A DNA stretch of 64,000 nucleotides from an uncultured Actinomycetota bacterium (GTDB lineage: Bacteria > Actinomycetota > Acidimicrobiia > Spongiisociales > UBA4744), in contig CAVQVN010000005.1 in the NCBI GenBank assembly GCA_963717135.1, positions 126,779 to 190,778 of the forward strand. Direction: 5' to 3'. Of the stretch, positions 4,040-63,441 are shown one piece after another. Position 1 is the stretch's first letter. Every line of letters begins with the position of its first letter. The position numbers and the translations under genes are program-made. The notes below the pieces were generated by a model, which was not told the origin of the DNA, did not search any database, and saw only the letters and a program-made list of their open reading frames with translations.

Positions 4040-4200
4040 GTCCGCCGTCCGCTATCCGCTATGCGCTATCAGCTTTCACTTCGTACTTTGTACCTCGTAC
4101 CTCGTACCGCGACCACCATTGCTGGGAGGTTAGGGGGCGAGCGAAACCTGAAACCTGCAACCTGAAACCTCCCTGCTCGAAGCTCGTGGCTCGTGCTGAA
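4040..4200. repeat. composite heptanucleotide word arrays (four blocks)
   Basis: Blocks: GTCCGCC GTCCGCT ATCCGCT ATGCGCT ATCAGCT (4040-4074); TCGTACT TTGTACC TCGTACC TCGTACC (4081-4108); GCGAAAC CTGAAAC CTGCAAC CTGAAAC CTCCCTG CTCGAAG CTCGTGG CTCGTGC (4141-4196, one register). Confidence 0.9.
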
Positions 4201-4234
4201 GCGGAGAAAGGCCCCCGGAGGGGCCTTTCTCCGC
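4201..4234. terminator. perfect hairpin, 15-bp stem and 4-nt loop (intrinsic-terminator-like, no U tract)
   Basis: GCGGAGAAAGGCCCC-cgga-GGGGCCTTTCTCCGC, 19 nt downstream of the SBP stop at 4253. Confidence 0.65.
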
Positions 4235-4252
4235 TTGCTGGCTTGTTGACGT

Positions 4253-5680
4253 CTACCCGGCGCAGGCCGCGGTGAACGTATACGCCTCGGCGGTCGGGCC
4301 TACGAAGAAGCCCGAGTCGCTCGTCGAAGCATCCTGGATGGTCTCTATTCCGGTCGTCGCCTCTTCGCTGTACTTGCCGATCACCGATGTGCGCGGGTAC
4401 ACCGCCGGATCATTGGGATCACCGGCGAAGGATCGGGTGGGCATCATGCCCTCGTAGTCAACGTCGGTGAGCGCGAAGGCCGCAGTCTCGATGCCCTCAT
4501 GGGACAGGTCACCGAGCTCATAGGCAGACTCCAGGGCCGCCTTGATCGCGTACTGCGACACCCAGCCGGCGGCGAAGAAGTCGTTGGCCGGGAATCCGGC
4601 AGCCTCTACGCCTGCCCGCAGTTTGGCGTGTCCTGCCGAGTCGTAATCCCAGCCCGCCACAAAGGAAGACTGGAAGAAAATCCCGGATTGAAAGGCCGGG
4701 GCGGCCGGCGAACCAAGCAAGGCGACGTTCCAGCTGGGTCCGGCCCCGATGAACAAGGGCACGCTGGCCGCCATCTGCTGGGCGGCGCCACCGACAATGG
4801 CAGCCGTCTCGCTAGGACCCGTCACCACGAACACAATATCGACCGGTTCTGCCACAATCTTGGCGACTGCTTCCGTCTGGGTCGGGTCGCCCCCGGACGA
4901 GGCGGGAATGACCGGCTGTTCCCAGGCAACGGTGATTCCATTGGCTTCAGCGGCGATCTTCACGCCGGCGCCGTAGTCCAATCCGTAGTCATTGGGAATG
5001 AAGGCGATGCCGGCCGTCGTAAATTCCCGGCCAATGGCCGGAATGGCCACCGTTGCCCAGTCGACGGCGTTCATCGCTTCAAAGCAGTAGCCGGTGCCGA
5101 ACTCTAGAACCCGATCCTCGTAGGCCCAGCCGGACCACCAGGACATCGGCGCCGCCACTGTGTGGTCTCGCGCATAATCGGGCAGCACAGCCAGAGTCTG
5201 GGGCGTGCCGAGCGACTGGGCAACGGCCGCCACATCTTCGGCTATCTGGGCATACGATGTCACCATGACGTCGTCCTGGTAGCCGGTGTCCTTCTTCAGG
5301 TCTTCCGGCAAGGCCACGTCGTAGGCACCGCCGATGCCGCCCTGGGCGTTGACCGTCGCCCAGAACAGCGACTGGCCCCCGTAAAGAGCCGGAGCCGCAC
5401 CGGCGAACGGGCCGGACTCGTCGGTAAGGACCCCCAGATAGATGCAGCCGTGATCCGGATTACCGCCCGGGCAGGGCTCCTCGGTCACGCCGGGACCCGT
5501 GATGATCTCCATCATGGCTTCTGTGGTGGTCGTCTCGGCGGCGGTAGTAGTCGTCTGCGCCGCCGTTGTGGTCGTCTCGGCGGCGGTGGTGGTCGTCTCC
5601 TCTGCCTGTTCGTTGCTGCAGGCGGCGGCTACCAGTGCCAGCACGGCCAGCACCACGAGCAGCTTGGTCCATCTCCTCAT
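4253..5680 (-). CDS. ABC transporter substrate-binding lipoprotein (Liv/HAAT type, PBP1 fold)
   Basis: Start at ATG 5680 with GGAGGAGGG upstream. Signal peptide plus lipobox: MRRWTKLLVVLAVLALVAAAC. A Thr/Ala linker (ETTTTAA x4) precedes a LivJ-like body. Confidence 0.85.
   Translation of the reverse strand: MRRWTKLLVVLAVLALVAAACSNEQAEETTTTAAETTTTAAQTTTTAAETTTTEAMMEIITGPGVTEEPCPGGNPDHGCIYLGVLTDESGPFAGAAPALYGGQSLFWATVNAQGGIGGAYDVALPEDLKKDTGYQDDVMVTSYAQIAEDVAAVAQSLGTPQTLAVLPDYARDHTVAAPMSWWSGWAYEDRVLEFGTGYCFEAMNAVDWATVAIPAIGREFTTAGIAFIPNDYGLDYGAGVKIAAEANGITVAWEQPVIPASSGGDPTQTEAVAKIVAEPVDIVFVVTGPSETAAIVGGAAQQMAASVPLFIGAGPSWNVALLGSPAAPAFQSGIFFQSSFVAGWDYDSAGHAKLRAGVEAAGFPANDFFAAGWVSQYAIKAALESAYELGDLSHEGIETAAFALTDVDYEGMMPTRSFAGDPNDPAVYPRTSVIGKYSEEATTGIETIQDASTSDSGFFVGPTAEAYTFTAACAG
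5522..5605 (-). repeat. in-frame 21-nt tandem repeat, 4 copies, encoding the (ETTTTAA)n linker
   Basis: Plus-strand units: TGTGGTGGTCGTCTCGGCGGC / GGTAGTAGTCGTCTGCGCCGC / CGTTGTGGTCGTCTCGGCGGC / GGTGGTGGTCGTCTCCTCTGC. Confidence 0.8.
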
Positions 5681-5720
5681 CAGTTCCCTCCTCCGTTTTC
5701 CTTGCACTTGTCGGGGCCGT

Positions 5721-11292: not shown

Positions 11293-11309
11293 GCAGCCGG
11301 AGGCTGCGC

Positions 11310-11414
11310 CGGTTTCGGGTTTCGGGTTTCAGGTACCAGATAGGGCAGCGCTTTCCGAAGTTGGAGGCACGTGTTTTGACCTGGAACCTGCCACCTGAAA
11401 CCCGAAACCGGTTC
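11310..11414. repeat. heptad-phased spacer with inverted GGTTTCN / NNGAAAC arrays
   Basis: CGGTTTC GGGTTTC GGGTTTC AGGTACC ... CCTGGAA CCTGCCA CCTGAAA CCCGAAA CCGGTTC. The two arrays are 70 nt (10 x 7) apart. CCGGTTTCGGGTTTCAGGT pairs perfectly with ACCTGAAACCCGAAACCGG. Confidence 0.9.
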
Positions 11415-13111: not shown

Positions 13112-14196
13112 GCGACGACCTGTTTGCCCGCCTCATTGAGCTGTTCAGCCAACCGGGACCGGTCAACTGGAAACTGGCGGGAGAAATCTCGCGTCATCTC
13201 GCCGGTCCGGTCGAGCCGATCGAGCCGTGGCTCGCCGAGGAGTACCGGGATCTGACGAGACTCGCCCAGATGAGGATCGCCGAAGTCACCAATCTCGACC
13301 TGGGAGATGCGATTGACGCCGTCCCGGTCGATCGCGCCACCTGGGCAGCCAGGAACCTGGAGAGCTTTCGCTATCTCGTAGAACCCCTGGCCGAAAAAAT
13401 CGGTGTGGACGATGCCGGCGGCCCACTCGAGGGAATGATGGTTCCGCTGGGCCCGGCCATTCTCGGCGCACAAATGGGCACCATGATTGGCTTTCTCAGT
13501 CACCGGGTCCTCGGCCAGTTCGACATCGGCCTCCCCACCGCCGAAGCCGGTGACCTCTACCTGGTCGTACCCAACATCGAAGCTTTCGCAGCCGAGAATC
13601 GTCTAGATACCCGCCAGGTTCGGTTGTGGGTAGCCCTCCACGAAGTGACCCACCAAGCGGAATTTGCCCAGCCGTGGACTCGACCTGAGCTTGTTGGTCT
13701 CATCGCCCGCTATCTCGATGGTCTGGAATTGGATCCAACCTCTCTGTACGAGAAATTGCAGGGCTTCTCGGACCCGGAGCAAATCGAGTCGTTGCTGAGC
13801 GATCCGACCGGTCTGGCAGGTCTCATCACCACTCCCGAACAACGCCCAATTCTCGATGCCATTCAAGCCTTCATGGCGGTGATGGAGGGCTACGCGGACT
13901 ATCTGATGGATCGCGCTGCTCCGAAGATGCTCCCGGATCTGGGGCGAATGAGGGAGGCCATGAACCGGCGACGCGCCGAACCATCGCAAGGTGAACAGAT
14001 CATCAACCGGATGTTGGGCCTGGAACTCAAACAAGAGCAGTACCGAGTAGGTGCCGAATTCTGTTCCGAGGTTGCCCGGAGATGGGGCGAGGATGCCCTC
14101 AACATATTATGGACCGCGGCCGAGTCCCTGCCGAGTCTCAACGAGTTGCGCGATCCCGTCGCCTGGGCCGCCAGGGTGCTCCTAGCGGAGATCTAA
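13108..14196 (+). CDS. zinc-dependent metalloprotease (DUF2342 / TIGR03624-like)
   Basis: 362 aa with HEVTHQ (HExxH). GTG start overlaps the htrA stop (GTGA). Confidence 0.75.
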   Translation: MSDDLFARLIELFSQPGPVNWKLAGEISRHLAGPVEPIEPWLAEEYRDLTRLAQMRIAEVTNLDLGDAIDAVPVDRATWAARNLESFRYLVEPLAEKIGVDDAGGPLEGMMVPLGPAILGAQMGTMIGFLSHRVLGQFDIGLPTAEAGDLYLVVPNIEAFAAENRLDTRQVRLWVALHEVTHQAEFAQPWTRPELVGLIARYLDGLELDPTSLYEKLQGFSDPEQIESLLSDPTGLAGLITTPEQRPILDAIQAFMAVMEGYADYLMDRAAPKMLPDLGRMREAMNRRRAEPSQGEQIINRMLGLELKQEQYRVGAEFCSEVARRWGEDALNILWTAAESLPSLNELRDPVAWAARVLLAEI

Positions 14197-14217
14197 GTGG
14201 GAAGTGGGAGGCCAGGA
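14197..14217. repeat. short heptad array GTGGGAA GTGGGAG GCCAGGA
   Basis: Starts immediately after the stop at 14194-14196. The same GTGGGAA word occurs at 27158-27178 and 44295-44322. Confidence 0.6.
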
Positions 14218-14438: not shown

Positions 14439-14455
14439 ATCAAACTCCTGAATGG

Positions 14456-14861
14456 TTACCGATAGTCTAGGGAAAAGAGTGTTCTTGGTTCTTGGTTGTT
14501 GGCATCGGTTCGAGAACTTCCACCGATTGACCCGATGAGGGCTCCCGGTTTCCTTTGAACCTCGGTGGTCTGCTCGACGACGGCTTTGACGTCGCTCGGT
14601 CCGATCAGGAGGAGGTCATTGCACAACTGCAATTGTGCTTCGAGTGCAAAGGCAGACCCCAAAGCCATCCGCAAGAACCGCGAGAAATCCTTGCCACCCC
14701 TTCCTGCACCTTCGGCGATGTTGGAGACAATGGAAACCGATGCTCTCCTCATCTGACTCGTCAATCCGAAGCACTGCCGGGAGATCCCGGCTCGCCAAGT
14801 AGACGGCCAACGTGAGCGCGTGTGCTTGCTGATCAACCCGACGAGTTCGGTAGTTCTGCAT
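14456..14861 (-). pseudogene. four-helix-bundle protein (23S rRNA IVS protein / Avd-like family, PF05635), apparently frameshifted
   Basis: N-terminus MQNYRTRRVDQQAHALTLAVYLASRDLP reads in one frame (14861-14778). The conserved core RQCFGLTSQMRRASVSIVSNIAEGAGRGGKDFSRFLRMALGSAFALEAQLQLC reads in the +1 frame (14776-14456). The break is in the CCCGG run near 14777. Confidence 0.6.
14481..14502. repeat. heptad array GTTCTTG GTTCTTG GTTGTTG (left arm of the inverted pair around the 4HB gene)
   Basis: Overlaps the 3' end of the 4HB reading frame. GTTCTTGGTTC is the exact complement of GAACCAAGAAC in the right arm. Confidence 0.85.
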
Positions 14862-14932
14862 ATGTCCGTTGTACTCCGCGCCGGTGACAAACCGACTCTG
14901 AGGATCTCCAGCCATGCAACGGAACCAATAAC

Positions 14933-14969
14933 GAAGAACCAAGAACTGAGAACCAAAAACAAGAACCAA
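14933..14969. repeat. heptad array GAAGAAC CAAGAAC TGAGAAC CAAAAAC AAGAACC (right arm)
   Basis: 72 nt upstream of the 4HB ATG and 16 nt upstream of the divergent membrane-protein start. Confidence 0.85.
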
Positions 14970-14984
14970 TTACCCTTCGTATCC

Positions 14985-18846: not shown

Positions 18847-19068
18847 CTACGAGCTGCGGGCCGTCTTGTGAATGGGCCGCAGCATCGCACCGGACAATGA
18901 GCTGACATGCCCGTCGTCCCAGAGCACCTCGACGTTGTCACCATGGACTTTGATCACCTTGCCGGTACGACCCGTCTGACCGACCTTCTTCGTGAGTTCA
19001 CGAACGTGCATTCCACTCCGCAACACGCTGGTCACCTCCTGGATCGAAGTATACGGAAAGAGAGTCAT
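18847..19068 (-). CDS. small SH3-like (DUF1918-like?) protein; start uncertain (ATG 19068 or 19011)
   Basis: GQTGRTGKVIKVHGDNVEVLWDDGHVSSLSGAML resembles small beta-barrel proteins. GGAG lies 4 nt before the internal ATG 19011. The stop abuts the kinase stop (TAGCTA). Confidence 0.4.
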   Translation of the reverse strand: MTLFPYTSIQEVTSVLRSGMHVRELTKKVGQTGRTGKVIKVHGDNVEVLWDDGHVSSLSGAMLRPIHKTARSS

Positions 19069-19120
19069 CAGTCGTCAGTCATCAGTCGTCAGTCGTCAGT
19101 CGTCAGTCGTCAGTCTGAAG
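19065..19120. repeat. heptad array, 8 units: TCATCAG TCGTCAG TCATCAG (TCGTCAG)x4 TCTGAAG
   Basis: Cleanest tandem heptamer array in the window; read directly. Confidence 0.95.
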
Positions 19121-19178
19121 ACCGATAGGAATGCCGCAGGCAGACCGACTGACAACTCAAGGGGCGGACCGCCGACAG

Positions 19179-27086: not shown

Positions 27087-27157
27087 CGTGACTCCTGCGC
27101 TGCGGTGTCCTCCAAGTCTTGCAGGTCGTAAAGGATGCCGCGGGGGTGTGGAATGGC

Positions 27158-27220
27158 GGGAGGTGGGAAGTAAGAAGTGGGGCGGACGGCAGACAGCCGA
27201 CAGCCGCCAGCCGCCAGCGA
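27158..27220. repeat. heptad array, 9 units in one register
   Basis: GGAGGTG GGAAGTA AGAAGTG GGGCGGA CGGCAGA CAGCCGA CAGCCGC CAGCCGC CAGCGAA. Confidence 0.85.
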
Positions 27221-28710: not shown

Positions 28711-28801
28711 GAAGAAGTACCTCGCACCTGGTACCTAGTACCTAGTACCTAGTACCAAAGAGGCTGCTCGTGGTACTGCGTACTGAGTGCTAGGTAGTGC
28801 C
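28711..28801. repeat. heptad array, 13 units in one register, overlapping the NYN gene stop
   Basis: GAAGAAG TACCTCG CACCTGG TACCTAG TACCTAG TACCTAG TACCAAA GAGGCTG CTCGTGG TACTGCG TACTGAG TGCTAGG TAGTGCC. Confidence 0.9.
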
Positions 28802-42085: not shown

Positions 42086-42087
42086 GA

Positions 42088-42104: not shown

Positions 42105-42216
42105 TAGCTTCGAGCTGCGAGCGGCGAGCCTTCAGCCCCTGGCGGGCAAATACCCGACTCAGCCCCTGATCTGTCTGGTTCGTAGCTGGTTGCTCGTAGC
42201 TCGTAGCTGGTCGCTT
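42105..42216. repeat. heptad-phased spacer, 16 units
   Basis: TAGCTTC GAGCTGC GAGCGGC GAGCCTT ... CTGGTTC GTAGCTG GTTGCTC GTAGCTC GTAGCTG GTCGCTT. The two end blocks are 70 nt apart in the same register. The middle is less regular (TCAGCCCCTG repeated 27 nt apart). Confidence 0.8.
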
Positions 42217-44244: not shown

Positions 44245-44265
44245 GAGAACTCATCCGCCACGAAC

Positions 44266-44291
44266 GAAAGGGGCCCTGCGGGGCCCCTTTC
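44266..44291. terminator. perfect hairpin, 11-bp stem and 4-nt loop
   Basis: GAAAGGGGCCC-tgcg-GGGCCCCTTTC, 22 nt after the SBP stop and between convergent genes. Confidence 0.65.
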
Positions 44292-44294
44292 AAC

Positions 44295-44399
44295 GTGGAA
44301 GGTGGGAAGTTCGACGTGGGAAGTCCGTCGCCCGCAAGGTTCCTGGTTCGAAGGTTGACGCTCGAAGCTCGAAGCTCGTGGCTCGCAGCTCGCAGCTAC
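44295..44399. repeat. heptad-phased spacer, 15 units in one register
   Basis: GTGGAAG GTGGGAA GTTCGAC GTGGGAA GTCCGTC GCCCGCA AGGTTCC TGGTTCG AAGGTTG ACGCTCG AAGCTCG AAGCTCG TGGCTCG CAGCTCG CAGCTAC. The last unit contains the livF-like stop. Confidence 0.95.
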
Positions 44400-49414: not shown

Positions 49415-49519
49415 TCACCAGTTCCCAGTTGCCAGTCGTCAGCGCACGTGTGCGCTATAAGCATGAAGCCCTCGTGCCAACTGGTCACTGGTCACTGGTC
49501 ACTGGCCACTGGTCACGAC
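49415..49519. repeat. heptad-phased spacer, 15 units, inverted CCAG/CTGG arrays around a 16-bp palindrome
   Basis: TCACCAG TTCCCAG TTGCCAG TCGTCAG CGCACGT GTGCGCT ATAAGCA TGAAGCC CTCGTGC CAACTGG TCACTGG TCACTGG TCACTGG CCACTGG TCACGAC. The palindrome AGCGCACGTGTGCGCT is at 49441-49456. The array runs over the stop at 49499. Confidence 0.95.
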
Positions 49520-54057: not shown

Positions 54058-54133
54058 TGGAGCTGGCGGAGGGAATCGAACCCACGACCTGCTGATTACA
54101 AATCAGCTGCTCTGCCGACTGAGCTACGCCAGC
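54058..54133 (-). tRNA. tRNA-Thr: tRNA-Thr (anticodon TGT), CCA encoded
   Basis: Hand fold of the reverse complement: GCTGGCG/CGCCAGC acceptor, GCTC/GAGC D stem, GCTGA-TTTGTAA-TCAGC anticodon arm, GTGGG-TTCGATT-CCCTC T arm (one U-U mismatch at 50-64), discriminator T, then CCA. Confidence 0.85.
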
Positions 54134-54167
54134 GAGGCTATTCCGGCTTTGCCGCAACCGCAGCTAT

Positions 54168-54265
54168 GAGCCACGAGCTGCGAGTGAACCACACCGGACA
54201 CGAAAGGTTAGCGCTCAACCGAAAACCATTAACGATTGCGAGTCGTTCTCGTCGCTCGTGGCTCA
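54168..54265. repeat. heptad-phased spacer, 14 units, closed by a 12-bp perfect inverted repeat
   Basis: GAGCCAC GAGCTGC GAGTGAA ... AACCGAA AACCATT AACGATT GCGAGTC GTTCTCG TCGCTCG TGGCTCA. TGAGCCACGAGC (54167-54178) pairs with GCTCGTGGCTCA (54254-54265), which includes the rlmB stop. Confidence 0.9.
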
Positions 54266-55018: not shown

Positions 55019-56372
55019 TGCCCAGAGCCGTCAAGCCATTCCGGACGGCGTCCGCTCTGGCCCATTCGCTCCGGCTCCGGGCTTTGTCGCGTTCGCTCAG
55101 GAGGCGATCGACGTTCGCGCCGGCAGTGGCTTCCGCCGAGATACCGAGGGATTCCATGAGCCCGGCGATCTGGGTCTCGAGCCCGGACAGGTCAGATCGG
55201 GGAGGTTCAAATCCGAGCACCTCAACTATCTCGTCGAAGGCGGCGGCCAGCGGTGCTGGGTCCCTACCCAGGTCAATGCGCCGATTACCTTCCCGGACCG
55301 CTTCGAACAAGACGCTCATTGCGCCCGCGGTGTTGAAGTCGTCGTCCATGGCTGCCACGAAAGCCTCCATCACAGAGGGATCCGATTCGCTGCCTGAGCC
55401 CGCCCGCCGCCGGAAGGCCCAGAGGCGCTCAACGGCCGATTGAGCGTCGGTCAGCAACTCTTCGGAGTACTCCTGAGGGGTGCGGTAATGAGCTCGCAGG
55501 AAGAACAATCGTACCGCCATCGGACCGAACCGCCTGATGGCTTCGGCCAGATCGATCACATGACCGGTCGACTTGGCCATCTTCTCACCACCGAGATTGA
55601 GCATCTCATTGTGCAGCCAGTAGGTGGCGAAGGGTTTCCCCGTGGCTCCCTCCGACTGGGCTATCTCGTTTTCGTGGTGAGGAAAGATCAGGTCTGTGCC
55701 ACCCGAATGTATATCGAAACCGCTGCCTAGATACTGCAGCGCCATCGCCGAGCATTCGATGTGCCAACCCGGCCTACCAAGGCCCCAGGGCGCCTCCCAG
55801 GCAGGCTCTCCCGGCTTGGCGGCCTTCCAAAGTGCGAAGTCGAGTGGGTCGCGCTTGTGCTCACCCGGTTCGACCCTGGCGCCGGCCAGCAGGTCATCGA
55901 GATGGCGCCCGGACAGCTTCCCGTACCCGGGAAGCGAGCGCACGGCGAAATAGACATCGCCACCGGCCGGATACGCCAGTTCTTCTTCAATCAACTTCTC
56001 AATCAGCTGCACCATTTGAGGTATGTGGTCGGTGGCTCGTGGCTCGATAGTGGGAGTCTTGACACCGAGAGCCGCATATGCGTCGCCGAACCGTTGGGCC
56101 ATGATCCCTGCCAGCTCCAATGCCGGAATTCCTTGTTCTATGGCCGCCGCGATGATCTTGTCCTCTACATCGGTGATGTTCCGTACATAGGTGACTCGAT
56201 AGCCGCGCCACTCCAGATAGCGACGGATGGCGTCAAACGCAACGGCGTTGCGACCATGACCCAGGTGAGGCTCGGACTGGACGGTAGCGCCGCAGACATA
56301 CATCGAGATCTCGCCCTGACGGCGAGGAACCAACTGCTCCTTGCGACGGCCGAGCGTATTGAAGACCTGCAT
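54972..56372 (-). CDS. cysS: cysteine--tRNA ligase
   Basis: Start at ATG 56372. MYVCGATVQSEPHLGHGR (HIGH-type) and GEKMAKSTGH (KMSKS-type). Confidence 0.95.
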   Translation of the reverse strand: MQVFNTLGRRKEQLVPRRQGEISMYVCGATVQSEPHLGHGRNAVAFDAIRRYLEWRGYRVTYVRNITDVEDKIIAAAIEQGIPALELAGIMAQRFGDAYAALGVKTPTIEPRATDHIPQMVQLIEKLIEEELAYPAGGDVYFAVRSLPGYGKLSGRHLDDLLAGARVEPGEHKRDPLDFALWKAAKPGEPAWEAPWGLGRPGWHIECSAMALQYLGSGFDIHSGGTDLIFPHHENEIAQSEGATGKPFATYWLHNEMLNLGGEKMAKSTGHVIDLAEAIRRFGPMAVRLFFLRAHYRTPQEYSEELLTDAQSAVERLWAFRRRAGSGSESDPSVMEAFVAAMDDDFNTAGAMSVLFEAVREGNRRIDLGRDPAPLAAAFDEIVEVLGFEPPRSDLSGLETQIAGLMESLGISAEATAGANVDRLLSERDKARSRSEWARADAVRNGLTALGIVVEDTPDGARWHRD

Positions 56373-56383
56373 TCGAGTCGATG

Positions 56384-56863
56384 TTAGTGAGGGCCGGCGG
56401 TGGCGGTTACTACGGCCGTAGCGGCAACTCCCGCCTCGCGACCGAGAAAACCCAGCCCGTCGGTGGTGGTGGCCTTGACCGAGACAACCCCAACGTCGAC
56501 GTGAAGCGAATCGGCCAGAGCGGATCGGATCTGCTCTCGCACCGGAGCTACCCGAACCGTCTCGGCCACGATCGTGACATCGAGATTGTTCACTCGCCAC
56601 CCTGCTGCTTGAAACCGATCAACCACGATCCCCAGCAATTCCATGCTGTCCGCCCCCGACCAACGCGGATCCGAGGAAGGGAAGAAGCTGCCCAGATCAC
56701 CGAGGGCCGAAGCCCCCAGCAGGGCGTCGGCGACCGCATGGGCAACCACATCGGCGTCAGAAGTCCCAAGTAACCCGCGCGCCATGTCGACGGGAATCCC
56801 CGCGAACAACACCGGCGGATCTCCGCCGAACTGATGAACATCCAGTCCCCATCCCACCCTCAT
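56384..56863 (-). CDS. ispF: 2-C-methyl-D-erythritol 2,4-cyclodiphosphate synthase
   Basis: MRVGWGLDVHQF...GTSDADVVAHAVADALLGA...DSMELL. ATGA overlap with ispD. Confidence 0.95.
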   Translation of the reverse strand: MRVGWGLDVHQFGGDPPVLFAGIPVDMARGLLGTSDADVVAHAVADALLGASALGDLGSFFPSSDPRWSGADSMELLGIVVDRFQAAGWRVNNLDVTIVAETVRVAPVREQIRSALADSLHVDVGVVSVKATTTDGLGFLGREAGVAATAVVTATAGPH

Positions 56864-57468
56864 CGAATCATCGCCTCCAGAACCCGCAAATCGTCGGGAT
56901 AGGTGACCTTGAGATTGCCGGGATCGCCTTCCACCCAGGCCACGGCTTCGCCGGCCCATTCGAGGAGCATTGCATCATCGGAGGCGTCGCCATCGTGAGC
57001 CGTATGGGCGGCCCGCAAGGCGGCCGCCTGAAACGCCTGCGGCGTTTGCACGCTGATAAGCGGATCCCGATCGATTGTTGTCAGGACCCTTCCGTAGGCA
57101 ACCTGTTTGAGGGTGTCCCGAACCGCCACGCCGGGTACGACCCCCGCCACATCGCCGACCGCCAAGCGCTCGAGAACCCGGCCCACCAGACTTGGATCGG
57201 CAAGAGGGCGGGCGGCGTCATGGACCACCACCACCGGGATGGACTCGGGAATCGTGGCCAGGCCGGCGGCAACCGAGTCGCGGCGGCGGTCACCTCCGGG
57301 AATGCCGTCCGGGACATCGCCAACCACGACGACCTTGGAAACCCCGCCTTCGAGGAGAGTTCGGCGAGCCCACTCCCAGAGGGGCCGGCCACCCAGGAGC
57401 AGCTCATGCTTTGGGCCTCCGAACCGGGAGCCGCGCCCGGCGGCCACGACAATCCCCCAGGCCATCAT
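56860..57468 (-). CDS. ispD: 2-C-methyl-D-erythritol 4-phosphate cytidylyltransferase
   Basis: GIVVAAGRGSRFGGPK...VVVHDAARPL...VQTPQAF. Confidence 0.9.
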   Translation of the reverse strand: MMAWGIVVAAGRGSRFGGPKHELLLGGRPLWEWARRTLLEGGVSKVVVVGDVPDGIPGGDRRRDSVAAGLATIPESIPVVVVHDAARPLADPSLVGRVLERLAVGDVAGVVPGVAVRDTLKQVAYGRVLTTIDRDPLISVQTPQAFQAAALRAAHTAHDGDASDDAMLLEWAGEAVAWVEGDPGNLKVTYPDDLRVLEAMIR

Positions 57469-58514
57469 GCGATGGGACGGCCAAACAACATCCGACCAAT
57501 TGCTGTGCGAGTGACGCTGACTATCTCGACTTCTTGAGTGAGCCCGATCAACTCGGAGCCGGCTTCGACGACAACCATGGTCCCGTCATCCAGGTAACCG
57601 ACTCCTTGGCCGGGTTCTGAACCGGCTTTGGTTATATCAACGACCAGTCTGTCTCCGGTGGCCACAACCGGTTTGAGAGACTCGGCGAGAGAGTTCGGAT
57701 TCAAAGCCGAGATACCCCTGGCGCCGGCCGCTTTGGCCAGGTTATGGTCCGTAGTGATGAGCGTCGCCTCGGCCCGCATGGCCAGGGCCAGCAATTTGGC
57801 GTCAACATCCTCGAATTCGGGAACAGTTTCTTTGAGGATGTAGACCTGCGAGACATCCGAGCCACGCATGGCTTCGATTATCTCCAGTCCACGCCTCCCC
57901 CGCCGCCGCCTCGTCTTGTCGACGGCATCAGCCAGTCCCTGCAACTCGTCGAGAACGAACTCCGGTACCCAAAGGCGGCCGGGAATCAACCCGGCGCGGG
58001 ACATCTCGAGGATCCGGCCGTCGATGGCTGCCGACGAATCGAGAAGAAACGCCCGTTCCGGATGATCCAGGCTGCGGCTTACCAACGTCCCCCGGCGCCG
58101 GAGACCCGTCACCGCCAACAGGTCGTCGGTCCGGGTGGCAAAGAGGCGGGTCCCCACGCTGGCGGTAATCAGCACAACCAACGAGGCAACGGGCCAAGCA
58201 ACCGCGGCGGGTACGAAATAGATGATGGGGACGGCAACTATCACTCCGACGATGAGCCCGACGATCAACCCAAAAGCCCCTGCGAACAATTCCGGTCCGG
58301 AGGATCGCTCGGCGATCCGCTCGGGCATTACATCCAGGCTCTTGCGGAAGCCGCGCCCGACCACCCCACCCGCCACGTAGCCGATACCGGCCCCGAGGAC
58401 GGCACCCAGCACGGGCGCAGTCTCCGGGCTGGAGGCGTCTACATTGGAGCCGAGCTGGAACCCGACCGCCGTCAGGGCCAACGTGATGAGTAACCGAACT
58501 GCCTCAACGATCAC
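57465..58514 (-). CDS. PIN/TRAM-domain membrane protein (YacL-like)
   Basis: Four N-terminal TM helices, a PIN domain (LLDSSAAIDGR...LITTDHNLAKAA) and a C-terminal TRAM-like beta domain, in the conserved position upstream of ispD. Confidence 0.8.
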   Translation of the reverse strand: MIVEAVRLLITLALTAVGFQLGSNVDASSPETAPVLGAVLGAGIGYVAGGVVGRGFRKSLDVMPERIAERSSGPELFAGAFGLIVGLIVGVIVAVPIIYFVPAAVAWPVASLVVLITASVGTRLFATRTDDLLAVTGLRRRGTLVSRSLDHPERAFLLDSSAAIDGRILEMSRAGLIPGRLWVPEFVLDELQGLADAVDKTRRRRGRRGLEIIEAMRGSDVSQVYILKETVPEFEDVDAKLLALAMRAEATLITTDHNLAKAAGARGISALNPNSLAESLKPVVATGDRLVVDITKAGSEPGQGVGYLDDGTMVVVEAGSELIGLTQEVEIVSVTRTAIGRMLFGRPIA

Positions 58515-58571
58515 GAAGCGAGGTTAGCGGCGCGCCCATCAATTGCCGGGGGTTGTCACCCCTGGCCGAGG

Positions 58572-59402
58572 TCAGCTCTCTTCAAGGGTCTCTACCTTGG
58601 GGAGGGCGCGGTCGAGTTTCCTGGTCGCTTCCTCCTCGTCGACATTGAGCGCGAACCGCAGCTCACTGGTCAGGGTTAGACGAGCCTTGGAAAGCATCCG
58701 CTTGAGGGCAGGTGAGATCCCCTTGGTTTGCTGGGCATATGTCAGATCCCGCACGACTTCGGCAACTTGATAGATATCACCGGAGGTCATCTTCTCGTTG
58801 AGGACTTTGTACCAGCGGCTCCAGTTGCTCCCTGCCTCTTGTGGAGTCTCTTTGAAAAGGGCAAACACCTTCCGCGCCTGGTTCTTGCTGATGACCGGTC
58901 GGATCGTGTCCTCTATGCTGGCGACCGGCACAAAAACCGTCAGCTGGTCGGTGGCTATCTCCAATTGGAAATAATCCTGACGTTGATCGCCCACCGTTTG
59001 TTTCACCTTTTTGACGATGATGGCCGCTCCATGTTGAGGATGCACGACCTTATCGCCGAGTGAGAAGGCTGATGTCTTGCGAACCGTCCGCGGTGAGGCC
59101 TGCTTCACGACCGCTTCCGGAGTGGGCTTGGCTGCAGCCGCCGCTCTCGGTGTTGCCTTCTTGGCTGCGGCGGGTTTGACCACGGGCTTCTCGACGACCG
59201 CCGCCTTGGTGGGGGGTTTCTTGGCAGCCGCCGGTTTCTTAGCAGCCGCCTTCGCAGTGGTCGTCTTCGCGGCTGCCGTCTTCTGCGTTGTCGTGGTCTT
59301 CCGGGCAGGCTTTTTCGCCGCCCCGGCTTCTGCAGCCGGCTTCTTGGCGGCCGCTTGGCTGGAGGCGGATTTGGTGGTGGACGTGGTCTTTTTGGTCGCC
59401 AT
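58572..59402 (-). CDS. carD: CarD-family RNA-polymerase-binding regulator with ~110-aa Lys/Ala/Thr/Pro-rich N-terminal extension
   Basis: Start at ATG 59402. The CarD core begins at FSLGDKVVHPQHGAAIIVKKV...NWSRWYKVLNEKMTSGDIYQVAEVVRDL. It is preceded by MATKKTTSTTKSASSQAAAKKPAAEAGAAKKPARK...AAKKPAAAKKPPTKAA... Confidence 0.85.
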   Translation of the reverse strand: MATKKTTSTTKSASSQAAAKKPAAEAGAAKKPARKTTTTQKTAAAKTTTAKAAAKKPAAAKKPPTKAAVVEKPVVKPAAAKKATPRAAAAAKPTPEAVVKQASPRTVRKTSAFSLGDKVVHPQHGAAIIVKKVKQTVGDQRQDYFQLEIATDQLTVFVPVASIEDTIRPVISKNQARKVFALFKETPQEAGSNWSRWYKVLNEKMTSGDIYQVAEVVRDLTYAQQTKGISPALKRMLSKARLTLTSELRFALNVDEEEATRKLDRALPKVETLEES

Positions 59403-59442
59403 GGATTCCTGCGTCGATTCGGAGGAGCAATAGTAATGCACA

Positions 59443-59554
59443 GACAGCTGATAGTTGCCCCCTGGCTGATGATTGCTCGTTATCAGTCAGCAGTCGGCAG
59501 TTGGCATCTCACCACTGGAAACTGGGAACCGGGAACTGGAAACTGGGTTGCTAC
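59443..59554. repeat. heptad-phased spacer, 16 units, between disA stop and carD start
   Basis: GACAGCT GATAGTT GCCCCCT GGCTGAT GATTGCT CGTTATC AGTCAGC AGTCGGC AGTTGGC ATCTCAC CACTGGA AACTGGG AACCGGG AACTGGA AACTGGG TTGCTAC. Confidence 0.9.
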
Positions 59555-60633
59555 AGCTCCACCGAGTGATCCCAGGCTCGGATCACTTCGATCATGCGAT
59601 CGAACAACCGGCGGAGTTGTGAAGCACGCGCCCTCCCGACGCCGGGTACCTCATCGAGCTCATCTACCGACGCTTTCAACATCTTCTGAAAGTCCTTGAA
59701 ATGTTTGACGATTTCGTCCCGGACGGCGGTAGGAAGACGAGGTACCTGGGAAAGCAGGCGGACCCCCAGGGGACGAGTGTGACTGTCCAGGTGGTCAAAG
59801 CCAAGAGCATCCGCCACCACATCCGGATCGCTCAGGTCAGCGGTAGGAAGTCCCTCCAAGTCAGCCAGGGCCTGCCCCAACCGCTTGGCCGAGACGGGTC
59901 GGACGTAATCTTTGACCACCAGGTCGCGCAATTCGCCGGTTCCGTACAAGAGGTCGGTGAGTTGCAGGTTGATCAGGTCTCCCTCCCCGCCCAGACCCAC
60001 GGCATCTTTCTCGATGTCCTGGCCGATTCGACGCACGAGTTCGGCTCGCTGCACCACCAGGACAACCGCCCGAAAGGTCATGAGGTCGGCTATCTCTTCA
60101 CGAGTCAATCGATCTTCTGCTTCGTCAAGCCGCCGCCGAAAACGTTCCAGGGTCAGCAATTCCTGATTGACTGTTGCAGCCAGCGTCGCCGGACTCTCGA
60201 GTTCGTGTTTGTCGCCTCCCAGGAACAGTGTCGCGACTCTTCGATCCTCACTGACCGCCACCACCGGCCGGCCGGTTTGGCGAGCTACCCGCTCGGCAGT
60301 CCGATAACGAGCGCCGGTTTCCTCAGTTGGCACTGCCGGATCTGGAAGCAGGTGAACGTTGACCCGAAGGATCTTATGCCAGGCATCGTCAAGGACGATC
60401 GCCCCATCCATCTTGGCCAACTCGGTCAACCTGGCCGGGGTGAAATCCGAGTCGGTGAGCGCAAAACCGCCGGAACACAGCGCATCTACCTCCTGACCGG
60501 CTCCGAGAACGATCAGAGCGCCGTTGCGGTGCTGGATGATCCTCCCCAAAGCGTCCCGCAAAGGCGTACCGGGCGCCAGCCGCTGCAAAGTCTCGAGGAG
60601 TTCCGGAGATGTGGAAGGCATCGCACCGATCAT
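59551..60633 (-). CDS. disA: DNA integrity scanning protein DisA (diadenylate cyclase)
   Basis: Start at ATG 60633. DAC domain with the DGA motif (AKMDGAIVLD), followed by a linker and a C-terminal HhH domain. The second motif reads GARYRTAER rather than the RHR I remember. Confidence 0.9.
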   Translation of the reverse strand: MIGAMPSTSPELLETLQRLAPGTPLRDALGRIIQHRNGALIVLGAGQEVDALCSGGFALTDSDFTPARLTELAKMDGAIVLDDAWHKILRVNVHLLPDPAVPTEETGARYRTAERVARQTGRPVVAVSEDRRVATLFLGGDKHELESPATLAATVNQELLTLERFRRRLDEAEDRLTREEIADLMTFRAVVLVVQRAELVRRIGQDIEKDAVGLGGEGDLINLQLTDLLYGTGELRDLVVKDYVRPVSAKRLGQALADLEGLPTADLSDPDVVADALGFDHLDSHTRPLGVRLLSQVPRLPTAVRDEIVKHFKDFQKMLKASVDELDEVPGVGRARASQLRRLFDRMIEVIRAWDHSVEL

Positions 60634-60635
60634 AG

Positions 60636-60676
60636 TGTCCTCGTTGCCTCGTTCCTCGTTCCACGTGCCTCGTTGG
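60636..60676. repeat. heptad array CCTCGTT x4 (mRNA sense AACGAGG) in the disA leader
   Basis: mRNA sense: AACGAGG CACGTGG AACGAGG AACGAGGC AACGAGG ACACU AUG. One step is 8 nt. The last GAGG is positioned as the SD. Confidence 0.85.
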
Positions 60677-60791
60677 CGTCCTCCCTCTGACGAGCGAAGC
60701 TTGCGGGGCTCGTCGACCAGCGAGGGGGAGGAGGGTCGCCCAACCCGCAGGGTCCCGGCGGGGAGTCCCTTCCCACCAAAGAAGGTCAAGG

Positions 60792-62132
60792 TCAGCGATC
60801 TCTCACTATCTGATCTTGCCAATCGGGGAGGGCCTGGTCGAGCGCTTCGAAAATCCCCAGCCGGCTCCCCTTGAGCGGTGCAATCGCCTTCGAAACGCCC
60901 AACCGAGCCGCCTCCTCTCGGCGCCGATCCTCGTGGGCTACTTCCCGCAACTCACCAGTGAGTCCGACTTCCCCCCAGGCAGCCACCGGGCCGAGCGGGC
61001 GGTTCAGGAACGACGAAGCGAGGGCCAGGGCAACCGGAAGGTCGGCGGCCGGCTCGGTCAGTCGTAGGCCTCCGACCACGTTGACGTAGACCTCCTGGTC
61101 CGAAAACGAAAGCCCGGCGTGCCGAAAGAGGACCGCCAGCATCTGGTGAACCCGGGATGCTTCGACCCCTCGCACGCTTCGGCGCGGCTGCGGGGCGGAG
61201 GTCGGTGACACCAGAGCCTGGACTTCTACAAGGACCGGACGGCGGCCTTCCACCGTTGGGAAAGCCAGGGTGCCGGGCACCGCTCCACGCCAGTCGGCCA
61301 GAAAGGCTGCTGAAGGGTCCGCGACCTCGCAAAGGCCCTCCTCAGCCATCTCGAAAAATCCCATCAAATGGGTTGCGCCAAACCTGTTCTTGAGGCTACG
61401 AAGGCCTCGCAATCCCGATTCGCTCTCACCCTCGAGGTACAGCACCACATCAACCATGTGCTCCAGCATTTTGGGTCCGGCGATTCCCCCATCCTTCGTC
61501 ACATGTCCGACCAGCACGGCAGCGGTGCCTGAATCCTTGGCGTGCCGCATAACCCGGGCCGCGCATTCGCGTACCTGGCTCACCGACCCTGGGGCGCTGC
61601 CGATCTCTGCAGCCATCACCGTCTGCACCGAGTCGACCACCAGGAGATCCGGGTGAAGTCGATCTGAGGCGCCGAGGATGTCGTCGATATCGGCCTCGGC
61701 AAGCAGATAGACCTCGTCCTCCGTCAATTCGAGACGTTCGGCCCGCAGGCCAACCTGCTCCGCCGACTCCTCGGCGCTCGCAATGAGCACTTTCGACCCG
61801 CCCGCCGCCAACGCTCCCGCCGTCTGCAACACAAGGGTCGATTTACCCACCCCGGGCTCACCGCCGAGCAGCACCACAGCCCCGGGCACGAACCCGCCGC
61901 CGAGCACTCGATCGATCTCGGCAATTCCGGTAGTGACCCGCGTGACGGCCGTGCCTCCTGCCTTGGCCAGGGAAATGGGATCGGACCCAATCGACGGACG
62001 CCGGTTCCCCTTCTCCGACAGCAAGACCAAGCCTTGAGAGGCGCGACATTGGGGACAAAACCCCATCCACTTGGCGGACCGGTATCCGCAGGCGTCACAT
62101 GAATACGTCATCGAAAGGATGTTATCGATCAC
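60792..62132 (-). CDS. radA: DNA repair protein RadA/Sms
   Basis: Zn finger CDACGYRSAKWMGFCPQC, Walker A GGEPGVGKST, KNRFG motif and a Lon-like C-terminal domain. Confidence 0.95.
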   Translation of the reverse strand: MIDNILSMTYSCDACGYRSAKWMGFCPQCRASQGLVLLSEKGNRRPSIGSDPISLAKAGGTAVTRVTTGIAEIDRVLGGGFVPGAVVLLGGEPGVGKSTLVLQTAGALAAGGSKVLIASAEESAEQVGLRAERLELTEDEVYLLAEADIDDILGASDRLHPDLLVVDSVQTVMAAEIGSAPGSVSQVRECAARVMRHAKDSGTAAVLVGHVTKDGGIAGPKMLEHMVDVVLYLEGESESGLRGLRSLKNRFGATHLMGFFEMAEEGLCEVADPSAAFLADWRGAVPGTLAFPTVEGRRPVLVEVQALVSPTSAPQPRRSVRGVEASRVHQMLAVLFRHAGLSFSDQEVYVNVVGGLRLTEPAADLPVALALASSFLNRPLGPVAAWGEVGLTGELREVAHEDRRREEAARLGVSKAIAPLKGSRLGIFEALDQALPDWQDQIVRDR

Positions 62133-62285
62133 GTGTGACGTAAAAGATGGCTGCGCCGACGGCGAGCAGCCCTGCCAACAACAGGAGCGCTCCCAAAATA
62201 TTGCCGAATGTCCAGGTCTCGGCCGTTCTGATCACAAAGTAGCTCACGCGCGTGGCACAATACCGCCGACGAGGAAGGAAGTCTC

Positions 62286-63191
62286 TTGACGCAGCAAGCC
62301 TGCAGCAATTGCGGGGCAAGATTCGAGGACCAGCAGTTCTGTCCCGATTGCGGCCAATGGGTCGACCCCTTGGACGAAACCCACTTCGAAGAGTTCACGC
62401 TGGGGGACTCGCCACCGGTGGACGACGATGAGCTCACCGTCGGCGGACCGGTCGAAACCTCGATCGCCCAGCTCATCAGCTGTCCGTCCTGCGGAGCCGC
62501 CAATCCCGCCCACAACCGGCACTGTGAAGAGTGCGGAGCTCGCATCACTCAGGGACCACTCCCGGTCGCCCCCCAACCGATGATCAGGACAACGGCCGGG
62601 GCGCGGGCTCTCGCTGTGATCCTGGGCGTGGTGGCGGTGGTAGCCGTCCTGGCCTTTGCCTGGAACGCCATCTTTGGCGGCGACGAAGAGCCTGCCCCGG
62701 AGGAAACCACCACCACCTCCACCACTCAACCGACCGCCAGCCAGCAACTCCTGGTGGCATCGGTGGCCTGCTCTAGCACCCTGGAAGTTGCCGGCGACCG
62801 GTTCGCCTGCGCCAACCTCATTGACGGGACCGACCGTTACTGGAACGACCAATCGGCTCAGGGCCGTGAGGCAGAAATCGTGTTCACGTTTGCCGAGCCG
62901 ATGGCTATAGAGCAAATCGTGTTCAAGAATGTGGTCGATGATGAAGCATTCAACAAGAACTACCGGGTGAAAGGATTCGAGATCGTGACCGACGATCTCC
63001 CCGATCGCCCAACCATCGACCAGCTCGACGACGATAACCGGTCCCAACTCATCCTGCTCGCCACTCTTCGCACCCGCCAGTTGACCTTCAGGGTCACCAG
63101 CACTTATGCGGCTGAAGCCGTCGCGGGCGAGACGCCTTTCAACGAACTGGCCATTGACGAGTTCCAGTTTTTCGGAAGGCCGGCAGGCTAG
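62286..63191 (+). CDS. double zinc-ribbon / single-TM / discoidin (F5/8 type C)-like domain protein
   Basis: CSNCGARFEDQQFCPDCG and CPSCGAANPAHNRHCEECG, TM helix ALAVILGVVAVVAVLAFAW. The C-terminal ANLIDGTDRYWNDQ...NELAIDEFQFFG is discoidin-like. TTG start with GAGGAAGGAAG upstream. Confidence 0.65.
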   Translation: MTQQACSNCGARFEDQQFCPDCGQWVDPLDETHFEEFTLGDSPPVDDDELTVGGPVETSIAQLISCPSCGAANPAHNRHCEECGARITQGPLPVAPQPMIRTTAGARALAVILGVVAVVAVLAFAWNAIFGGDEEPAPEETTTTSTTQPTASQQLLVASVACSSTLEVAGDRFACANLIDGTDRYWNDQSAQGREAEIVFTFAEPMAIEQIVFKNVVDDEAFNKNYRVKGFEIVTDDLPDRPTIDQLDDDNRSQLILLATLRTRQLTFRVTSTYAAEAVAGETPFNELAIDEFQFFGRPAG

Positions 63192-63364
63192 GCGCGCTTC
63201 GCTCGCCAGCCGGTGGCAGTTTCCAGGTTTCAACTCCCCGGCTGTTTGTCTCTTTGAAGGTCTTCGGAACATTGTCGGTGGGCACCCATCCCCCTCCCCC
63301 TGGCTGAGCTCGGGTACTTCCCCCTACTCAACGGGCTCCGCTCGTTCAGGGGGGAGGCGCAGGC

Positions 63365-63441
63365 AAGAACTGAGAACTGAACGGGCGGCCCCGGGGGCCG
63401 CCCGACTGACAACTGACAACCGCGAGCGAAGCGAGCTACTC
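63365..63441. repeat. heptad-phased spacer, 11 units, with an embedded 21-nt hairpin
   Basis: AAGAACT GAGAACT GAACGGG CGGCCCC GGGGGCC GCCCGAC TGACAAC TGACAAC CGCGAGC GAAGCGA GCTACTC. Confidence 0.85.
63383..63403. terminator. GC hairpin GGGCGGCC-ccggg-GGCCGCCC between convergent genes
   Basis: 8-bp perfect stem. Length is exactly 21 nt (3 x 7), in register with the flanking heptads. Confidence 0.55.

Follow-up and report, generated by a model that had tools for sequence, protein, structure and literature searches.

Heptanucleotide simple-sequence arrays in the intergenic spacers of one clade of Acidimicrobiia

Seven-nucleotide units in the non-coding DNA of the window

The DNA analysed here is a stretch of 64,000 nucleotides (nt) from an uncultured bacterium of the class Acidimicrobiia (contig CAVQVN010000005.1, positions 126,779 to 190,778, GenBank assembly GCA_963717135.1), referred to throughout as the window. 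About 15 of its spacers, distributed over the whole 64 kb, contain short tandem arrays of seven-nucleotide units, and further arrays follow past the window end in two loci of another sample, L030 and L031. The neighbours of the arrays are housekeeping genes such as disA, carD, genes for ABC transporters and a tRNA gene. The arrays are best read as heptanucleotide simple-sequence arrays of the general kind known as short tandemly repeated repetitive (STRR) sequences and long simple sequence repeats (SSRs), and one clade of genus rank carries them as a heritable trait. Genes were mapped from codon usage, refined with Pfam domain limits and a 360-aa DisA cluster representative; the open reading frame (ORF) 3554-4165(+), which overlaps arrays, was treated as non-coding because it has neither a Pfam match nor a coding signal.

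The periodicity was measured as the fraction of identical bases at a given lag relative to dinucleotide-preserving shuffles, over the 6.2 kb of non-coding DNA in the window. Identity at lag 7 is 0.317 compared to 0.260 +/- 0.006 in the shuffles (z=9.7), with the higher multiples following at lag 14 (z=7.9), lag 21 (z=5.2) and lag 28 (z=2.2), and every lag other than 7, 14 and 21 stays below |z|=5. The lag-7 signal is absent from the coding DNA of the window, which shows only the usual period of 3, so that, within the window, a comparison with shuffled sequence of the kind called for by the original prediction yields a clear excess in non-coding DNA only. Tandem Repeats Finder (TRF) reports 44 rows in the window, 23 of which have period 7 and lie where arrays had first been placed, and together with direct reading it recovers tandem units at each of those positions. 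A sliding test requiring 15 matches of 21 picks out 17 regions of period 7, compared to no more than one each for periods 4, 5, 8, 10, 11 and 13. Strict period-7 arrays occupy 10.9% of non-coding bases versus 0.29% of coding bases, other periods accounting for at most 0.4%. Lag-7 identity reaches at least 0.32 in 15 of the 28 spacers of at least 60 nt, close to the 14 of about 25 array-bearing spacers of the original count. When printed in blocks of seven, these spacers resolve into stretches of 2-8 like units whose word shifts stepwise.

Two parts of the initial description are not borne out. The arrays had been said to fill about half of the larger spacers, which overstates their extent, as strict coverage ranges from 10 to 49% of the array-bearing spacers. 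The proposal that separated blocks keep a common seven-nucleotide register fails both blind tests and finds no support beyond about four units. Same-spacer 6-mers lying 29-200 nt apart, counted by distance modulo 7, give 32, 31, 18, 15, 26, 24 and 27 pairs, and several of the 32 in-register pairs fall within the single long array at 19063. Over lags 29-126, multiples of 7 average 0.2562 identity versus 0.2589 for the others (P=0.90). Four of the five examples offered for a common register are uninformative because they are inverted blocks, for which a register is arbitrary or cannot be defined; the fifth (63365/63407) is direct, and its common AACTGA copies are 43 and 36 nt apart rather than 42.

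Arrays and hairpins along the window

The first array is AAGCTCG x2.6 (3334..3351, from TRF), at the 5' end or in the leader of an acyl-CoA dehydrogenase ORF, and its word is of the same class as the array word at 44348. Further on lie TCCGCTA x3.9 and TCGTACC x4 with units that drift stepwise (4037..4113; TRF and direct reading), then GAAACCT x4 followed by GCTCGAA/GCTCGTG units (4139..4197; TRF, direct reading and BLAST), and a GC-rich terminator-like hairpin that abuts the arrays 3' of the stop of gene 4253-5680(-) (4200..4240; direct reading). The region 11311..11412 consists of GGTTTCG x3.4 (11311-11334) and an inverted arm CTGAAAC CCGAAAC (about 11381-11412), in a spacer with a fold z of -4.7. 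AAGTGGG x2.1 (14195..14209; TRF) overlaps the stop codon of gene 13108-14196(+). GTTCTTG x3.1 (14481..14502; TRF) lies within the 3' tail of a 23S_rRNA_IVP-family ORF and has its inverted partner in GAACCAA x7 (14922..14969; TRF and direct reading), situated in the divergent spacer upstream of the same gene. This gene, at about 14456-14850(-), encodes a four-helix-bundle, Avd-like protein and is thus bracketed by inverted arrays of three and seven units. A gene for a 70-aa HTH_17/excisionase-like protein adjoins it (14226-14438(-)), and the two (14226-14990) may constitute a small inserted cassette.

In a convergent spacer, AGTCGTC x7.6 (19063-19115) is followed by one inverted copy within CCGACTGACAACT (19145-19157), the whole spanning 19063..19157. 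GGTGGGA-type units and then GACAGCC x3.9 (27157..27219) lie 70-130 nt upstream of gene 25704-27086(-). AGTACCT x5.9 (28716-28756) with an inverted arm GTACTGN (28716..28798; spacer fold z=-4.4) overlaps the stop codon of the NYN/LOTUS gene 28790-29854(-). The modular hairpin at 42106..42216, with a left arm (CGAGCTN)n and a right arm (AGCTCGT/AGCTGGT)n, begins at the ribosome-binding site (RBS) of gene 41117-42085(-) and reaches as far as the gene 42216-42923(-) stop codon. A bidirectional terminator-like hairpin, GGGGCCC-TGCG-GGGCCCC (44271..44293), is conserved throughout the relatives, whether or not they have arrays, and is followed in the window by GTGGGAA units, decayed GGTTNC units and TCGAAGC x7.1 reaching the stop codon of gene 44396-45091(-) (44295..44397).

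Towards the end of the window, the inverted arms CCAGTTN x3-4 and ACTGGTC x5.3 (49480-49516) make up the region 49415..49516 (spacer fold z=-3.1), and weak inverted arms NNNGAGC x3 and TCGTNGC x3 (54163..54265) lie between tRNA-Thr and a SpoU methylase gene, where spacer lag-7 identity is 0.36 and TRF makes no call. CAGTCGG x3.3 and ACTGGAA x4.7 (59484..59547; TRF and direct reading) are found directly 3' of the disA stop codon. On the minus strand, (AACGAGG)x5 (60636..60677) ends 4-5 nt upstream of the disA start codon (60633), and a composite element extends from a stop codon to (TYCAGTT)2 (63358..63447), as seen by alignment, BLAST and a covariance model.

Position of the arrays relative to genes

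The arrays tend to lie near stop codons. As the original prediction had it, they abut or overlap stop codons, with 26% of arrays lying within 10 nt of a stop codon versus 7% of random spacer pieces (P=0.026), and the array units at 49499, 44396 and 42216 include the stop codon itself. By spacer type, arrays are present in five of seven convergent, nine of 15 co-directional and one of six divergent spacers, the divergent class differing from all others combined (14/22) at Fisher P=0.056. The disA leader array is the only one to abut a start codon; on the minus strand it presents five Shine-Dalgarno (SD)-like GAGG motifs spaced 7 nt apart (60636-60677).

Several observations concern the genes and spacers beside these arrays. 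The ACTGGTC array invades the 3' end of gene 49499-50323(-) by 18 nt (49499-49516), so that the last residues (..TSGQ*) and the TGA stop of that gene are repeat-encoded. The loop between the CCAGT and ACTGG arms of the same spacer contains a near-perfect palindrome, AGCGCAC-GT-GTGCGCT (49441-49456), which could be an operator-like site. The CarD homologue 58572-59402(-) carries an N-terminal extension of about 110 aa that is rich in lysine and alanine and resembles the histone H1-like HC2 family; the extension is present also in L040 and is missing in the L032 lineage. A look-up of the 821-aa protein of the window as a single sequence returned no record.

Distribution among relatives and strains

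The closest species representatives of the substrate-binding protein encoded at 43048-44244 are all Acidimicrobiia metagenome-assembled genomes (MAGs), the best at 90% amino-acid identity, and synteny with the relatives is kept over tens of kilobases. All fetched relative loci went through the identical gene caller and were scored at lag 7. Loci whose marker-protein identity is 86% or more carry the signal (L001, L002, L016, L017, L020, L022 and L028, z 2.5 to 5.4; the full range given for this identity class is 2.5-9.5). The signal is absent from the sister group at 80-84% identity (L003, L004, L015, L018, L019, L021 and L025; z<1) and likewise from more distant Acidimicrobiia loci (z<1). Among loci anchored on DisA, arrays are present in L037 (90%), L032-L036 (87%) and L038 (85%), and traces only in L040 (85%), which belongs to another lineage. 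The arrays are thus a clade-specific trait whose intensity is graded within the clade.

Repeats can mis-assemble in metagenome-type assemblies such as the source of the window, and the whole pattern could in principle be an assembly or sequencing artefact or the product of chance. No observation in favour of this was found, and the likelihood is negligible. L030 and L031 (European Nucleotide Archive ERZ25039600) are independent contigs that are 99.17% identical to window 54058-64000, and the arrays 59443-59554, 60636-60676 and 63365-63441 are base-for-base identical in them, with additional CAGTTGT, TTCCAGT and TGGCAAC arrays about 6 kb past the window end; the arrays are therefore neither assembly artefacts nor confined to the window. 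The presence of homologous arrays in the corresponding spacers of assemblies made by several projects, and the excess over shuffles given above, effectively refute an artefact.

The comparison of three strains (the window, L030 and L031) also reveals differences that lie outside the arrays. A 21-nt insertion, ACAGCGGGGCGTTACCCGAGC, in L031 at window position 60716, in the radA-disA spacer and 40 nt from the disA leader array, is the sole multi-base indel in about 10 kb; its length is 3 x 7, yet no tandem copy is obvious. Two 1-nt indels in radA of L030 (window 61564 and 61937) split the gene call, with others in L031; errors in long-read assembly are the probable cause, not pseudogenisation. 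The similarity of L030 to the window stops exactly at tRNA-Thr (54058), beside which L030 16368-20841 encodes a tyrosine integrase, an HTH_17 protein and a TrwC relaxase, and this region looks like an integrative element of one strain only.

Array dynamics at orthologous spacers

Spacer 42086-42215 separates the stop codon of an AlaX-like gene from the start of its same-strand neighbour. This spacer does not exist in the sister lineage, where the flanking genes overlap by 7 nt or are 10 nt apart, whereas all members of the array clade have 98-162 nt at this position, composed of two inverted heptad arms and a loop. Arm lengths vary by whole units between species, and L028 has a 28-nt block that is missing in the window. 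At the hairpin-less junction of the sister locus L004 (5300-5340), a direct 11-nt repeat, CACTGTGATCG x2 in the minus-strand sense, lies across the stop/start region. Next to it, the divergent promoter/leader spacer 42924-43047, which precedes the ABC substrate-binding gene, has 95% identity between the window, L022 and L028, compared to about 88% for the coding DNA of these species; it holds the hairpin CCCCCTTTGGGGGG, has no Rfam match and may be an undescribed leader element.

In the convergent spacer 44245-44395, arrays occupy the interval between the terminator-like hairpin and the stop of the minus-strand gene in the array clade only. At the stop codon that carries (GCTCGNN)x7 in the window, array-less relatives show GCTCGCC GCTAC, which looks like a two-unit proto-repeat, and L001 has an expanded (AGGTTTC)x7 in place of the three decayed GGTTNC units of the window. 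The two ends of disA also retain related words. Directly 3' of the stop codon, the window has (CCAGTTN)x5, L037 (ACCAGTT)x4 and L032 (NATCAGT)x2-4, and directly 5' of the start codon, the window has (AACGAGG)x5, L032 AAGAACG-type units and L037 AACGAAT-type units, both of them A-rich. The ACTGACA word at window 63405 is found again at the matching L038 locus (7424). Since words and sites are kept at orthologous spacers, the arrays are inherited vertically, while unit number and variable positions drift; alignment of orthologous spacers, as the original prediction had suggested, reveals whole-unit differences between species and none among close strains.

Within arrays, chosen by eye for this measurement, the identity of units at a separation of one to six falls through 0.68, 0.65, 0.60, 0.49, 0.47 and 0.43, and off-register lags give 0.16-0.26. 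This decay with separation is the signature of local duplication and not of an independent constraint on each unit. The local sequence itself suggests where the arrays were seeded: the proto-repeat in array-less relatives, the disA leader, which reads as a repeated SD region, and the inclusion of stop codons within units would all fit an origin at the site.

Complementary arms and compensatory change

Complementary partner arms are present in about six spacers, and the spacers at 11180, 28535, 42086, 49388 and 63192 have fold z values between -3.1 and -4.7, in agreement with the original suggestion that inverted blocks could pair. At 42086-42215 the arms align in register over six species and give a unit profile that reads C-C-A-G-Y-N-N in the left arm and C-T-G-G-N-N-R in the right arm, with five conserved and two free positions. 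The arms change in a coupled manner, with CCAGC:GCTGG in L022 and L016, CCAGT:ACTGG in L028 and L020, and CGAGC:GCTCG in the window. The stem that RNAalifold predicts from the six species is modular, and 14 of its 40 pairs show compensatory change. Over 22 stem pairs, 87.9% of cells are paired versus 79.8 +/- 1.5% in shuffles (0/500), nine pairs change on both sides versus 3.2 expected, and slid controls pair at no more than 45%; these figures come from six sequences and a structure derived from the same alignment. Single-sequence fold z lies between -2.4 and -4.8 in five of six orthologues of this hairpin and near 0 in L001. The ratio of G-T to A-C oppositions (8 vs 1) was not used as evidence for the strand, as it is biased by the way in which the structure was derived.

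A mini-hairpin in the same spacer, GGGAACC-GGA-GGTTCCC in the minus-strand sense (42086-42105; columns 31-45 of the six-species alignment), encloses the RBS of gene 41117-42085. It also covaries over the six species, pair 32-44 being GC in three and CG in two. A search of the window against Rfam 15, at the gathering score and E<=0.1, recovered two tRNAs only and no known RNA family.

Words shared between unlinked loci

The recurrence of a small vocabulary at unlinked loci, another element of the original prediction, exceeds chance. Allowing rotation and reverse complement, 17 pairs of TRF words from different spacers lie within one mismatch compared to 6.1 expected (P=0.0015), and ten exact 13-mers are common to different spacers compared to 0.82 in shuffles. 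The 13-mers fall into three families: the 19-mer GCTCGAAGCTCGTGGCTCG at 4175-4193, identical at 44367-44385; CAAGAACTGAGAAC near 14936 and 63362; and CCGACTGACAACT, a 13-mer correctly noted from the outset as identical at 19145 and 63402. Units with CAGT/ACTG occur in 7 of 23 arrays versus 3.2% of background heptamers (P=6e-6 per array), and in 4 of 12 spacers (P=0.006).

A BLAST of every spacer against every other returns just three inter-locus matches, namely the 19-mer (4175/44367), a 24-mer (11379 vs 4146) and one of 56 nt that joins window 63366-63420 to L030 793-848 (91% identity, E=1e-13). Alignment stretches the last of these to a composite of about 90 nt present at two loci roughly 6 kb apart in the same genome, with copies at window 63358-63447(-), L030 764-856 and L031 985-1077. 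The composite reads stop codon, GCTTCGCT, (CAGTTGT)2, CAGTC, a GC-rich hairpin GGGCGGCCC..GGGGCCGCCC, and (TYCAGTT)2. A covariance model built on it scores the window copy at 78.9 bits and finds no copy beyond the two loci in the 296 kb searched.

Shared strings of this kind would be expected if the arrays derived from small dispersed and possibly mobile hairpin elements, similar to repetitive extragenic palindromes (REPs), their hairpin-forming doublets (REPINs) or miniature inverted-repeat transposable elements, which inserted beside stop codons and were later diversified by slippage; the common vocabulary would then reflect descent of the copies. The composite, the occurrence of several different units within the shared 19-mer and 24-mer, and the presence of GTTGTCAGTCGG beside a hairpin at three loci point in this direction, as do the complete absence of spacer 42086-42215 from the sister lineage and the bracketing of the IVP-family gene by inverted arrays. 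Such an origin is nevertheless improbable. The composite has just two copies in 296 kb, the loops and flanks of different hairpins have no detectable similarity, arrays are inherited vertically at fixed positions, the proto-repeats of array-less relatives suggest a local origin, and Pfam scans of the roughly 50 window proteins reveal no transposase, REP-associated tyrosine transposase (RAYT) or reverse transcriptase. Multi-unit strings common to unlinked loci therefore indicate some inter-locus copying, and a high-copy mobile family is not demonstrated.

The persistence of particular words can also be explained if the arrays are protein-binding platforms, occupied on the transcript or on single-stranded DNA by a cooperative binder with about 7 nt per protomer, such as a cold-shock-domain, S1 or HutP/TRAP-like RNA-binding protein. 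Binding would tune translation initiation, as at the disA leader, or 3'-end stability, and on inverted arms it would need both orientations or have its sites masked by pairing. The conserved CCAGY core with two positions free across units and species is consistent with recognition, and orthologous loci keep their word families down to a nucleotide identity of about 77% (CCAGTTN 3' of disA, AACGAxx 5' of it, ACTGACA at 63405 and L038 7424). The enrichment of CAGT/ACTG units, the contact of arrays with start and stop codons and their invariance among strains fit as well, and the same proposal has been made for TAACTGA repeats (MacGregor 2015, PMC4679880). This remains rather unlikely, for the number of unrelated words per genome (GAAACCT, GTACCTA, GACAGCC, GTGGGAA and others) goes beyond one sequence-specific binder, orientation relative to transcription is mixed, and no candidate protein was identified. 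Moreover, a given spacer bears different words in different species, both arms having changed together, which fits pairing better than recognition.

Relation to known repeats

The STRR heptanucleotides of heterocystous cyanobacteria, reportedly described by Mazel et al. in 1990, are said to include the units CCCCAGT, TTGGTCA and CAACAGT. The original comparison of the window arrays with STRR is apt, as both have a seven-nucleotide period, few-copy tandem arrays, an intergenic bias, dispersal over many loci and similar words. The window units CTGGTCA, YYCCAGT and CRTCAGT are one base off the units reported as TTGGTCA, CCCCAGT and CAACAGT, whereas the exact words so reported are missing from the window, which contains only variants with at least one mismatch per unit. 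Matches to CCCCAGT x2 number 12 overall versus 10.2 expected, that is, chance level, although those within arrays are clear. The window arrays differ in their Acidimicrobiia host, in having many more word types per genome, and in being short (2-8 units), imperfect and often arranged as inverted hairpin arms.

Heptanucleotide repeats are over-represented in the intergenic DNA of bacteria and form the most abundant class of long SSRs in most repeat-rich genomes, and three Actinobacteria are among the ten genomes richest in repeats of 5-11 nt, according to Mrazek et al. (2007) as relayed in PMC4679880 and PMC4692102. The original remark that no description of such an organisation was known for a GC-rich actinobacterium-like genome is therefore too strong, and what holds is the narrower point that a literature search found no report of such arrays specific to Acidimicrobiia. 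In Xanthomonas, heptanucleotide arrays have an intergenic bias, are depleted between divergent genes and occur in inverted pairs, and two species have arrays at the same positions that differ in length and sequence (Rehm et al. 2015, PMC4692102). The arrays of the window resemble these in their period-7-specific intergenic excess, well above that expected from composition (z=9.7), their rarity between divergent genes, their occasional inverted pairs and their occupation of the same intergenic positions in related species with varying length and sequence. Unit-number variation among close relatives, the mark of slippage in long SSRs, was not found. Known long-SSR words include GGGAATC of Xanthomonas and GGGGA(T/C)T of Nostoc (PMC4692102); no single word dominates the window, and since its units are not G-rich, unlike GGGAATC-type long SSRs, they have no G-quadruplex potential.

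Direct TAACTGA repeats are found in marine Beggiatoaceae and in some Cyanobacteria and Bacteroidetes (MacGregor 2015, PMC4679880). They share with the window arrays the unit length, copy numbers of 2-6, interruption by related heptamers and positions upstream of starts or overlapping ORF ends, and the window units GAACTGA, CAACTGA and YGACTGA are one-base variants of TAACTGA. The exact TAACTGA dimer is not found in the window, which has five matches at 2-3 mismatches versus 1.1 expected. In the TAACTGA system one word is dominant and nearly all sets are direct and upstream of start codons, whereas most window arrays lie near stops or terminators, many form inverted pairs and the words are diverse. 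In Geobacter metallireducens, tandem GGACCGG x4 and MTYCTGA x5 have been annotated as 'global regulator sites', mostly in pairs (PMC2700814). The 4-5 tandem copies, the tens of loci and the CTGA ending of MTYCTGA, shared with the ACTGA units of the window, recall the present arrays, but the Geobacter elements are near-identical fixed copies, while copy number, words and flanks vary by locus in the window.

The REP, bacterial interspersed mosaic element (BIME) and REPIN elements of gamma-proteobacteria are similarly intergenic, mostly 3' or co-directional, and form imperfect hairpins and inverted pairs, and protection of mRNA 3' ends has been proposed for them. REPs are dispersed copies of one palindromic unit of 20-40 nt, mobilised by RAYTs and without an internal seven-nucleotide periodicity; in contrast, most window hairpins share no sequence, and no RAYT is encoded among the window proteins. 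Phase-variation contingency SSRs were considered and rejected, as the arrays are strain-invariant and their neighbours are housekeeping rather than surface or restriction-modification genes.

The kind of repeat is thus already known. What is new is the Acidimicrobiia host, the sharp contrast between presence and absence in sister clades, a spacer found only where arrays are present, measured compensatory change between arms and invariance at the strain level, for which no prior description was found. To our knowledge, neither a function nor a reason for the length of 7 nt has been established for heptanucleotide repeats, familiar as STRR since 1990 and as an excess since 2007.

Origin and significance of the arrays

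The account favoured here, with moderate confidence, is a clade-specific bias towards tandem duplication in seven-nucleotide steps that is seeded locally, with its products filtered by selection and the arms kept complementary where a stem-loop is tolerated or useful. Strand slippage at replication or repair would duplicate short sequences in tandem, starting from sequences beside stop codons, terminator hairpins and a few ribosome-binding sites. Point mutation would let the units drift and new variants would be amplified in turn, which would produce changing words with neighbours most alike. Because 7 is not a multiple of 3, selection would purge arrays from coding DNA, and it would also largely clear them from promoter-only (divergent) spacers, so that arrays would build up in 3' regions and between co-directional genes, where they would have created or lengthened the spacers. 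Inverted arms would pair as a long stem of 5-bp helices, with the core CCAGY:RCTGG or a derivative of it, separated by two variable nucleotides. Their complementarity is kept over species-level divergence, most likely because the stem-loop is the tolerated or useful form of an insertion that sits beside a terminator or in the gap from a stop codon to the following ribosome-binding site. Like REP and BIME elements, such stem-loops might protect 3' ends or partly terminate transcription. Mrazek et al. (2007, as relayed in PMC4679880 and PMC4692102) proposed that 7 nt reflects the length of DNA in the grip of the polymerase, and that slippage would thereby be favoured. Generation of spacers by slippage and stems in 3' regions had both been raised in the original prediction, and both fit the evidence, slippage itself being a step that we infer.

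A number of observations weigh against this account. Local slippage alone leaves the 19-mer (4175/44367) and the ~90-nt composite at unlinked loci unexplained and does not account for the enrichment of CAGT/ACTG units, and the five conserved and two variable unit positions point to constraint rather than neutral drift. The step size of 7 nt lacks an explanation, and the polarity, insertion in the array clade versus loss in the sister clade, is drawn from parsimony alone. In the clear arrays, neither the three strains that are 99.2% identical over about 10 kb nor three further relatives (L002, L016 and L017; 99.0-99.5% identical) have any unit gain or loss or any single-nucleotide polymorphism. 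From this invariance, slippage would have to be slow and unlike that of contingency loci; the test has low power in close relatives, as the arrays are short and imperfect, and unit numbers do differ between species. Comparison of the fold energies of both strands reveals no consistent preference for the transcribed strand, and an RNA-level role is accordingly not demonstrated.

Three features in particular remain puzzling for local duplication followed by selection: the preference for a CAGT/CTGG core in common with distant phyla, the coupled change of the arms, and the strain invariance of arrays that otherwise resemble products of slippage. The arrays might, rather than being generic slippage debris, be the footprint of a specific process or factor, gained at the base of the clade, that prefers CAGT/CTGA-type heptamers, builds spacers and leaves modular hairpins behind, a speculative reading to which only a small probability is assigned. 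The preferred core would be the one present also in cyanobacterial STRR, the TAACTGA repeats of Beggiatoa and the MTYCTGA sites of Geobacter. New spacers would then have split genes that overlap in the sister lineage, with products persisting as 5-bp helices and 2-nt loops whose two arms evolve together.

The significance of the arrays lies in a contrast: one clade has them in abundance, and none can be detected in a sister clade that is just about 5-10% further away in protein identity. This provides a clean comparative handle, with directly comparable spacers, one of which exists only with its arrays, and with arms that undergo compensatory change. Because they make spacers longer and run over stop codons and ribosome-binding sites, the arrays also affect gene calling and operon prediction in these MAGs.

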